DNA of 29,734 nt, from IMG/VR virus record IMGVR_UViG_2850756110_000009, one strand, 5' to 3'. The translations under genes were made by a program, and so were the position numbers. Of this stretch, positions 25,577 to 26,031 are shown one piece after another. This DNA is from a virus (Duplodnaviria > Heunggongvirae > Uroviricota > Caudoviricetes). Under the pieces are notes generated by a model. That model saw only the letters and a list, made by a program, of their open reading frames with translations, did not search any database and had not been told where the DNA came from. Within the stretch, counting starts at the first letter, position 1; every line of letters starts with the position of its first letter.

Positions 25577-25904
25577 CGCCCTGTACTGGTTAGCAATAGC
25601 AAATTTACTACCAGCTGCTCTGATTTCAAGAAAGCTGTACACCTCCCTTATGCCTATATTTTTAACCGGAACACCACCAAAGTATTCACTTATGATTTTC
25701 AACCTCTGGTTGTGTCTTTTCATGGTGTTTGTGCTTAATTGTCTACGCTCTATTTCATTTCTGAAATTTAATATCAGCTCGCAGAATAATGTTACGCTAT
25801 TACCTTTTATTCTATCCAGTAAGCTTATATGTTGCGTGGATAATAATTCCATATTTGCCGCAATAGCCTCATTAACTGCAATTCTTTTGTCTCTTCCGAT
25901 TCCA
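25577..25904 (-). pseudogene. Lambda-type tyrosine integrase, N-terminal fragment (about residues 35-145), cut on both sides by IS elements
   Basis: Translation ...GRDKRIAVNEAIAANMELLSTQHISLLDRIKGNSVTLFCELILNFRNEIERRQLSTNTMKRHNQRLKIISEYF... aligns by eye to lambda Int (GRDRRIAITEAIQANIELFSG...NSVTLHSWLDRYEKIL...). AT-rich; upstream side replaced by the IS1 fragment, downstream side by IS911. Confidence 0.65.
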
Positions 25905-26031
25905 GGTGATGACTCCAACTTACTGATAGTGTTTTATGTTCAGATAATGCCCGATGACCTTGTCATGCAGCTCCACCGATTTTGAGAACGACAGTGACTT
26001 CCGTCCCAGCCTTGCCAGATGTTGTCTCAGA
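25905..26031 (-). mobile_element. IS1 fragment (terminal 127 bp including IRR), truncated by IS66 copy 3
   Basis: GGTGATGACTCCAACTTACTGATAGTGTTTTATGTTCAGATAATGCCCGATGACC...GTTGTCTCAGA matches the reverse complement of the insB-distal end of the complete IS1 at 16330-16481; it breaks exactly at the IS66 GTAAGCG end. Confidence 0.85.

Follow-up and report, generated by a model that had tools for sequence, protein, structure and literature searches.

The integrases of lambda (PDB 1Z1G, 5J0N, 1KJK, 1P7D) and of phages 434, HK97 and HK022 share a three-domain layout, and it is from a member of this family that the remnant described here derives. Disruption of integrase genes by insertion sequences (ISs) is presented as a general phenomenon of defective, grounded prophages in one published account (PMC6379469), and IS-driven rearrangements of Shigella genomes are described in two others (PMC8072062; Hawkey et al. 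2020, PMC7373316, as cited in PMC9046306). The locus that we analysed resembles the grounded Shigella prophages in that a prophage carrying a virulence gene appears to have been immobilised once int, xis and att were lost, and it resembles IS-driven Shigella decay in its inversions and deletions between IS copies. Unlike in such published cases, individual steps can be read here from target duplications that are split across sister genomes. In the searchable literature we found no description of this locus or of an attachment site at the start of pgl.

What lies here is an ordinary scar of a thoroughly known kind, a piece of an integrase pseudogene bounded by IS elements within the remains of a Shigella prophage. 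Its general biological weight is small, since IS-truncated int pseudogenes are well known in defective prophages, as are IS-mediated inversions and deletions in Shigella. The fragment, hereafter int', would nevertheless explain why an ipaH-carrying prophage can no longer excise. Its exact junctions, which are possible lineage markers among S. dysenteriae-like strains, and the split duplications order at least five rearrangement steps. For strains with the arrangement seen here they predict that ~22 kb has been lost, the gal and mod operons among it. We consider it very likely that int' is a non-functional internal fragment of the int gene of a lambda-family ipaH prophage, trapped among IS elements with a stepwise IS history. 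Throughout, the window is the whole stretch of 29,734 nucleotides that was analysed, and L numbers designate the loci compared with it (Table 1).

Table 1. Features of the window and their counterparts in compared loci (L003, prophage locus of E. coli FDAARGOS_944)
Feature	Window position	Strand	Counterpart, relative orientation	Remarks
IS66-family copy 1	559..2999	plus		beside zitB; 5' flank, zitB side of ACTTAACT; 3' flank, tfa side of GATTTTGC
GATTTTGC	3000..3007			half of the 8-bp duplication of the tfa/ipaH site; now flanks copy 1
Tail fibres and tfa	3000-5934		L003 41373-38583, reversed	
Holin	23358-23573		L003 17268-17053, reversed	
tRNA region	23874-24319		L003 16365-15925, reversed	
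Complete IS911 (IS3 family)	24319..25566	minus		both inverted repeats, OrfA/OrfB; IRL faces int'
Hybrid 147-codon ORF	25475..25918	minus		TTG start in IS1 inverted repeat, 112 int codons, ends in IS911 IRL region
int' (predicted pseudogene remnant)	25567..25904	minus	L003 1895-2232, direct	338 bp; 112 complete in-frame codons, no stop
CTG	25567..25569			one copy of the IS911 3-bp target duplication; intact int reads ...aaaaatgt CTG ataaaagc...
IS1 terminal fragment	25905..26031	minus		IS1 positions 642-768, 127 bp; right inverted repeat abuts int'
IS66-family copy 3	26032..28472	minus		2441 bp, three ORFs; 3' (transposase-distal) end joined to IS1 position 642
GCAAAATC	28473..28480			other half of the 8-bp duplication of the tfa/ipaH site; now flanks copy 3
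ipaH side	28473-29734		L003 41366-42627, direct	
Reshuffled IS66 flanks	551-558, 3000-3007, 26024-26031, 28473-28480		loci L004-L024	
Aligned att regions			L003 1055-1290 and 44150-44502; L014 2400-2620	core covers pgl start codon

An internal fragment of a lambda-type integrase gene lies between IS1 and IS911

A preliminary description of the window had proposed that 25577-25904, flanked by an IS1 fragment and IS911, is what remains of a lambda-type integrase gene. We found that 337 of the 338 nucleotides of int' (99.7%, E = 3e-173) are those of the intact int gene of E. coli FDAARGOS_944, with the sole mismatch at 25610, which bears out the proposal and its right-hand end but moves the left boundary to 25567 and the length to 338 bp. 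On the minus strand the translation starts GIGRDKRIAVNEAIAANMELL and ends QYRALLS. It spans codons 61-172 of the parent gene as annotated (373 codons) and, through the alignment of the parent, is equivalent to residues 36-148 of lambda Int, which is all that the window keeps by comparison with that protein. The protein alignment suggested in the preliminary description gave the expected answer: tblastn matched the translation to HK022/lambda-type integrases at 33% identity with E = 1e-9 to 1e-11, a similarity far beyond chance. At the DNA level, only two of 5426 complete E. coli genomes match the 338 bp, at 99.7%, and blastn against the phage collection returned no match, similarity there being at the protein level only. 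No NCBIfam profile matched the fragment.

The preliminary description had further assigned the remnant to the N-terminal arm-binding region, and here the alignment points elsewhere. By homology, int' is predicted to contain the last arm-binding helix, the linker and about three-quarters of the core-binding domain, that is, the tail of the arm domain and most of the domain that follows. The start codon and the catalytic domain are missing, as is the arm-binding beta-sheet, most of which is gone because int' begins at lambda residue 36. Pfam Arm-DNA-bind_1 (PF09003; lambda residues 1-64) is covered at profile positions 41-65 of 74 with 20.1 bits, below the curated cutoff of 22 bits, so that an arm-binding domain is not called. 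The core-binding (SAM-like) domain, at about lambda residues 75-175, is reached only to residue 148, and the SAM-like Pfam matches (PF13495, PF02899, PF22022) are weak and all under their curated cutoffs; homology to this domain is nonetheless clear because of the 99.7% identity with the parent gene. None of the int catalytic residues falls within the remnant, which ends at codon 172, and the domain with the catalytic Arg-Lys-His-Arg-His and Tyr was not found in it. Comparison with the parent gene revealed no further piece of int anywhere in the window, from which xis, attL and attR are also absent. These features mark int' as a putative pseudogene fragment derived from a member of the lambda-type Int family, not a member predicted to be able to act.

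The int' codons now sit within a hybrid ORF (Table 1), the exact product of which occurs on 23 contigs, 13 of them of chromosome size (>1 Mb). No Pfam domain is recorded for this product, and exact-product records were found neither for an ATG-started version nor for the tfa'-IS66 hybrid ORF. The frame is open through all 112 int codons, is extended at both ends and is identical in the 23 contigs, and isolated domains of lambda Int can bind DNA, so the ORF could be imagined to encode an expressed, domesticated protein, for instance a DNA-binding modulator of lambda-type integrases or of IS911. We regard this as highly improbable. The TTG within the IS1 inverted repeat is the sole start available; promoter-like sites around the ORF are at chance level (two found against 1.1 expected from shuffles) and none is placed to drive it; and both domains are cut, since the match to the Pfam arm domain begins only at position 41 of its 74 and the core-binding domain breaks off before its end. 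The sameness of int' across strains equals the near-identity of its whole surroundings, with 0-1 differences anywhere in the region, and the identity of the ORF among close strains reflects recent common descent, not selection. Public assemblies list the hybrid ORF as a gene, but it is not a native one and arose as a by-product of the joins. The remnant itself would be non-functional, judging from an anatomy of no native start, two cut domains and no catalytic domain.

The parent prophage and its predicted integration site at the start of pgl

The parent gene is intact and uninterrupted in E. coli FDAARGOS_944 (WP_244461926.1; NZ_CP065613.1 4286289-4287410). The true start of the 373-codon annotation is likely Met26, giving 348 aa. 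Its product aligns over its full length with lambda Int structures (PDB 5j0n/1z1g, E = 1e-83), has the arm-binding domain (1kjk, E = 4e-20), and shares the three-domain layout described above. It is 45% identical to the lambda/434/HK97 integrases of the phage collection, in which no record reaches 60% identity. The motifs with R212, K235, H308, R311, H333 and Y342, the catalytic residues of lambda Int, are kept in the alignment of the parent. As in lambda, an overlapping xis is annotated upstream.

The FDAARGOS_944 prophage is ordered ybhA-int-xis-early genes-four tRNAs-lysis-terminase-head-tail-tail fibres-tfa-ipaHb-pgl. An att core had been named in the preliminary description as something to look for, and a three-way alignment with the empty K-12 site recovered one, the 13-bp TTCATGAAGCAAA, at both ends of the prophage. 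An exact-repeat search had yielded as candidate only a 10-mer, which we took as a chance match. The alignment places the predicted integration site between ybhA and pgl, at the start codon of pgl. The parent attB, TTCATGAAGCAAA at that codon, differs from that of lambda, which is found between ybhC and ybhB, a few genes beyond. On integration the pgl coding sequence is kept, and everything upstream of the core, including the ribosome-binding site, is replaced by phage sequence.

When the window was mapped onto this reference (Table 1), int', the neighbouring late genes and ipaH proved to belong to one decayed prophage. The two prophages are of the same family, with ipaH beside attR: they agree at 94-98% in the tail-fibre region, 99.6% in ipaH and 98-99% in the holin gene and tRNA region. 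The middle of the late region of the window is mosaic and has no DNA match to the reference. The FDAARGOS_944 prophage differs from that of the window in having xis, attL, attR and a complete int; attR on the window side lies past the right end, beside pgl (L022). The tRNA genes of the window number four (23875-24185, minus strand: Gly-TCC, Thr-TGT, Arg-TCT and CAT), and the CAT tRNA is annotated as tRNA-Ile in the reference prophage. The only other E. coli genome with this int gene, that of FDAARGOS_943 (L001, NZ_CP065615.1 2084854-2109189), has its int cut by IS600 near the 5' end, together with IS600 and IS1 insertions in the recE-ydaE region, and looks like an independent, parallel decay of the same prophage.

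The IS911 junction holds half of a target duplication

The element on the low-coordinate side of int' is a complete IS911, with terminal repeats TGAAGTGG..., OrfA/OrfB and a 3-bp target duplication that can be rebuilt from the window and L005. Its IRL is TGAAGTGGCACAC reverse-complemented, ending at 25566, and in the window and all sister loci this IRL is followed by CTG ataaaagc.... In L005, L006 and L008 the C-terminal half of int ends ...aaaaatgt CTG and is followed by the IS911 IRR. The C-terminal half adjoins ybhA in L005, L006, L008 and L010, on the strand opposite to int', and the early genes between the two halves are inverted relative to the reference in those genomes. The preliminary description had attributed the loss of the C-terminal half to an IS911-associated deletion and had suggested searching the flanking genome for it; the search found it beside ybhA in sister genomes and nowhere in the window. 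Because each of two mutually inverted IS911 copies holds one half of the CTG duplication, the joint is half of a simple insertion followed by inversion, not the edge of a deletion.

The IRR of the window copy, on the 24319 side, faces the prophage tRNA region and not the C-terminal half of int, so this IS911 is a product of recombination with a second IS911. We infer such an IS911 x IS911 exchange from the inverted orientation and the split duplication. At the second IS911 junction pair there is no 3-bp duplication (CAT vs CTG) and the two sides lie ~5.6 kb apart on the reference; this junction is more complex than a single exchange would give, and an additional change occurred.

Two further observations concern IS911 in the window. 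Near its 3' end, orfB of the complete copy is missing 1 nt that is present in sister copies and in the partial copy in the window, a frameshift that alters the last ~25 residues of OrfB. The partial copy (22835-23357) consists of the 3' 523 bp in the orientation opposite to the complete one and has the holin gene immediately on one side and a DUF4054-like head-tail gene on the other, where the reference has ~9 kb of lysis, terminase, portal and head genes that are missing here. The length of the partial copy varies among sister genomes, being 523 bp, 720 bp or that of a full copy.

The IS1 junction is accompanied by an apparent 4.4-kb loss

On its high-coordinate side int' abuts GGTGATGACTCCAACTTACTGAT..., the right inverted repeat end of IS1. 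The IS1 sequence here is 99.2% identical to the complete IS1 of the window at 15714-16481. A whole element has 768 bp, GGTRATG... repeats, insA/insB and an 8-9 bp duplication; the fragment at 25905-26031 is the terminal 127 bp only, with no insA, no insB and no target duplication. In L007, L008 and L012, a complete 768-bp IS1 occupies the identical junction with int', and in L008 and L012 its other flank maps to position 6615 of L003, near ydaE and colinear with int'. No 9-bp target duplication was found around IS1 at this junction in the sister loci. Comparison with the reference suggests that the IS1 junction is associated with a 4.4-kb loss, in which int codons 1-60 went together with the genes xis through recE.

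Two other insertions are seen elsewhere in the late region. The complete IS1 lies in the tail region and has an 8-bp duplication, GACAGTTT. A complete IS2 (7047-8377, 1331 bp), with the 5-bp duplication CTGAT, lies inside a prophage tail/baseplate gene.

IS66 copies have recombined and cut the IS1 fragment last

Copies 1 and 3 of the IS66-family element differ by 1 nt. Pfam HTH_Tnp_1, TnpB_IS66 and DDE_Tnp_IS66 are on record for identical copies, and E. coli copies that are 98% identical to those of the window are annotated in RefSeq as IS66-like, ISEc22 family. The GTAAGCG termini, the three ORFs and an 8-bp duplication, seen around copy 2 and around the single copy in L023, are those of the IS66 family. 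As had been noted beforehand, the IS1 piece ends exactly where copy 3 starts with GTAAGCG (26031/26032). At its 5' end copy 3 is joined to the ipaH-side flank of the tfa/ipaH site, and it has no duplication of its own because its two flanks come from different sites.

We tabulated IS66 flanks across 20 loci, which defined two simple insertions, zitB|ybgS with the duplication ACTTAACT and tfa|ipaH with GATTTTGC; the two duplications are reshuffled among IS66 copies in 10 or more genomes. CP026842 (L023) has a single IS66 copy with the 8 bp of GATTTTGC on both sides. In the window, the sequence from 3000 onward is the reverse complement of L003 from 41373 and that from 28473 onward is L003 from 41366, an overlap of 8 bp. 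The IS66 copy near int' had been proposed to be the partner of the copy beside zitB, and the splitting of this duplication into GATTTTGC and GCAAAATC indicates that these two copies recombined. The proposal is also borne out by CP026819 (L011), in which zitB-IS66-IS1'-int' is directly contiguous. CP026807 (L016, L005) has ybgS-IS66-ipaH together with (other IS66 fragment)-IS66-IS1'-int'. None of the 5426 complete E. coli genomes has the same junction joins as the window.

At least four IS66 arrangements occur in the sister genomes, namely the simple insertion, a ~55-kb inversion, zitB joined to IS1', and the window type; an odd copy with kdsA/ldr flanks is seen in the L013 contig. Copy 2 of the window (17794-20234) is a simple insertion with the duplication GCATCAGC at 17786-17793 and 20235-20242, splitting a tail gene, for the product of which the Pfam family E217_gp31_N is recorded; in CP026840 it has recombined with the tfa|ipaH copy.

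In L005, L006 and L010, IS66 takes the place of a 5003-bp stretch that L012 retains in colinear order and that holds a portion of a further IS66-family element, IS110-family and IS3-family elements, ydaE, and IS1 positions 1-641. The flanks of the IS66 copy at this deletion, ...ATAAAAAC and TCTGAGAC..., do not form a duplication. The joint between IS66 and IS1 thus appears to be an IS66-associated deletion of 5.0 kb. Insertion into IS1 followed by recombination and a one-step adjacent deletion are both compatible with it, and either may have taken place. The reciprocal junction, IS1(1-649) ending TCTGAGAC and then the IS66 5' end GTAAGCGTACAGCC, was found in none of the genomes examined. Apparent microhomology or shared flanks at the joint (repeat arms extending 5-8 nt past the IS ends) proved on direct reading to be artefacts of gapless extension.

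These junctions bear on the order of events. The preliminary description had IS1 inserting into int, then IS66 into IS1, and then an IS911-associated deletion removing the C-terminal half of int. All three junctions do sit where it placed them, and the C-terminal half is neither beside int' nor anywhere in the window, but we now find this history improbable and consider it largely refuted. Three sister genomes (L007, L008, L012) share the IS911-int' junction although their IS1 is whole and IS66 is absent there, so the IS66 cut is the latest of the three events and follows that of IS911. The IS911 joint holds one half of the CTG duplication, and the other half lies, inverted, with the C-terminal half of int beside ybhA in sister genomes. 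Nor do IS1 and IS66 behave as simple insertions, since both joints are without target duplications and both come with deletions, of 4.4 kb and 5.0 kb.

Identical repeats of 1.2-2.4 kb, a classic cause of mis-joins, crowd the region, and the whole arrangement could in principle be an assembly artefact of collapsed or wrongly joined IS repeats. We give this almost no credence. The junctions and their order are identical in three independent chromosome-scale assemblies (CP026805, CP026834, UYIT01000003), and the window is 100% identical to CP026805.1 over 14,260 nt. The alternative arrangements in other strains moreover obey a reciprocal logic of target duplications that random mis-joins would not. 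One sister genome, CP026832, is that of S. dysenteriae serotype 14 ATCC 49346 (PMC10132075).

A stepwise history with a probable 22-kb loss

The history that we propose for the IS-trapped int fragment draws on the junction sequences and the sister genomes, except for the IS911 exchange and the 22-kb loss, which are deduced more indirectly. IS911 inserted into int between codons 172 and 173, duplicating CTG. Recombination with a second, inverted IS911 would then have flipped the early region and left int' pointing away from its own C-terminal half. Before or after the IS911 event, either order being compatible, codon 60/61 of int was fused to an IS1 end and 4.4 kb disappeared, by adjacent deletion or IS1 x IS1 exchange. 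Later, an IS66-family element came to abut IS1 position 642, and 5.0 kb went missing, IS1 positions 1-641 among them. Exchanges took place among three IS66 copies, those inserted at zitB/ybgS (ACTTAACT) and tfa/ipaH (GATTTTGC) and the one at IS1. The net result here is a late region inverted between zitB and int' and, probably, the loss of a further ~22 kb: ybgS, aroG, gpmA, gal, mod, ybhA, the C-terminal half of int and remnants of the early region.

CP026807 has two IS66 copies in direct orientation whose starts are 22,298 bp apart. Recombination between them would give exactly the junctions of copy 3 in the window and would remove ybgS, aroG, gpmA, galMKTE, modFE, acrZ, modABC, ybhA, the C-terminal half of int and the early-region remnants. 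An alternative, equally short path could reach the same end point: the zitB and IS1 copies would first delete what lay between them, as in CP026819, and an inversion involving the tfa|ipaH copy would come after. In the window genome the prophage remnant is all that separates zitB from pgl, over only ~30 kb, from which we infer the loss of the 22-kb segment. Given the missing flanks and the gene order, the window genome has probably lost these ~22 kb.

The window has no integrase, excisionase, attL or head genes, and the prophage is accordingly predicted to be immobilised. Since it lacks int, xis and attL, and since terminase and head genes have evidently been lost as well, their place being taken by the partial IS911, the ipaH prophage would be fixed in the chromosome. 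A wider picture is possible, and we advance it only tentatively. The remnant int' may mark an apparently uncharacterised lambda-family integrase that, with the core TTCATGAAGCAAA on the pgl start, exchanges the promoter and ribosome-binding site of pgl for phage sequence on integration while delivering an ipaH effector gene. In a lineage that includes S. dysenteriae, the three IS66 copies might then act as a polymorphic recombination system, inverting ~55 kb in some strains and deleting the gal and mod operons, aroG and gpmA in others, the window genome included.

Two genes at the edges of the window also depart from their counterparts. In zitB (window 1-525), a 1-nt deletion in a run of G (GGGG to GGG) relative to CP026819 truncates the ORF to 174 codons, against 313 aa in CP026819; zitB may be a genuine pseudogene here, or the homopolymer may have been misread in sequencing. 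At the opposite end, ipaH (window 28868-29734 and beyond; L022 6300-9100) is present as a 288-aa ORF with the C-terminal NEL (E3 ubiquitin ligase) domain only. UYIT01000003, with an ipaH of 608 aa, has 2 nt more in this region, and the effector gene is probably frameshifted in the window genome.
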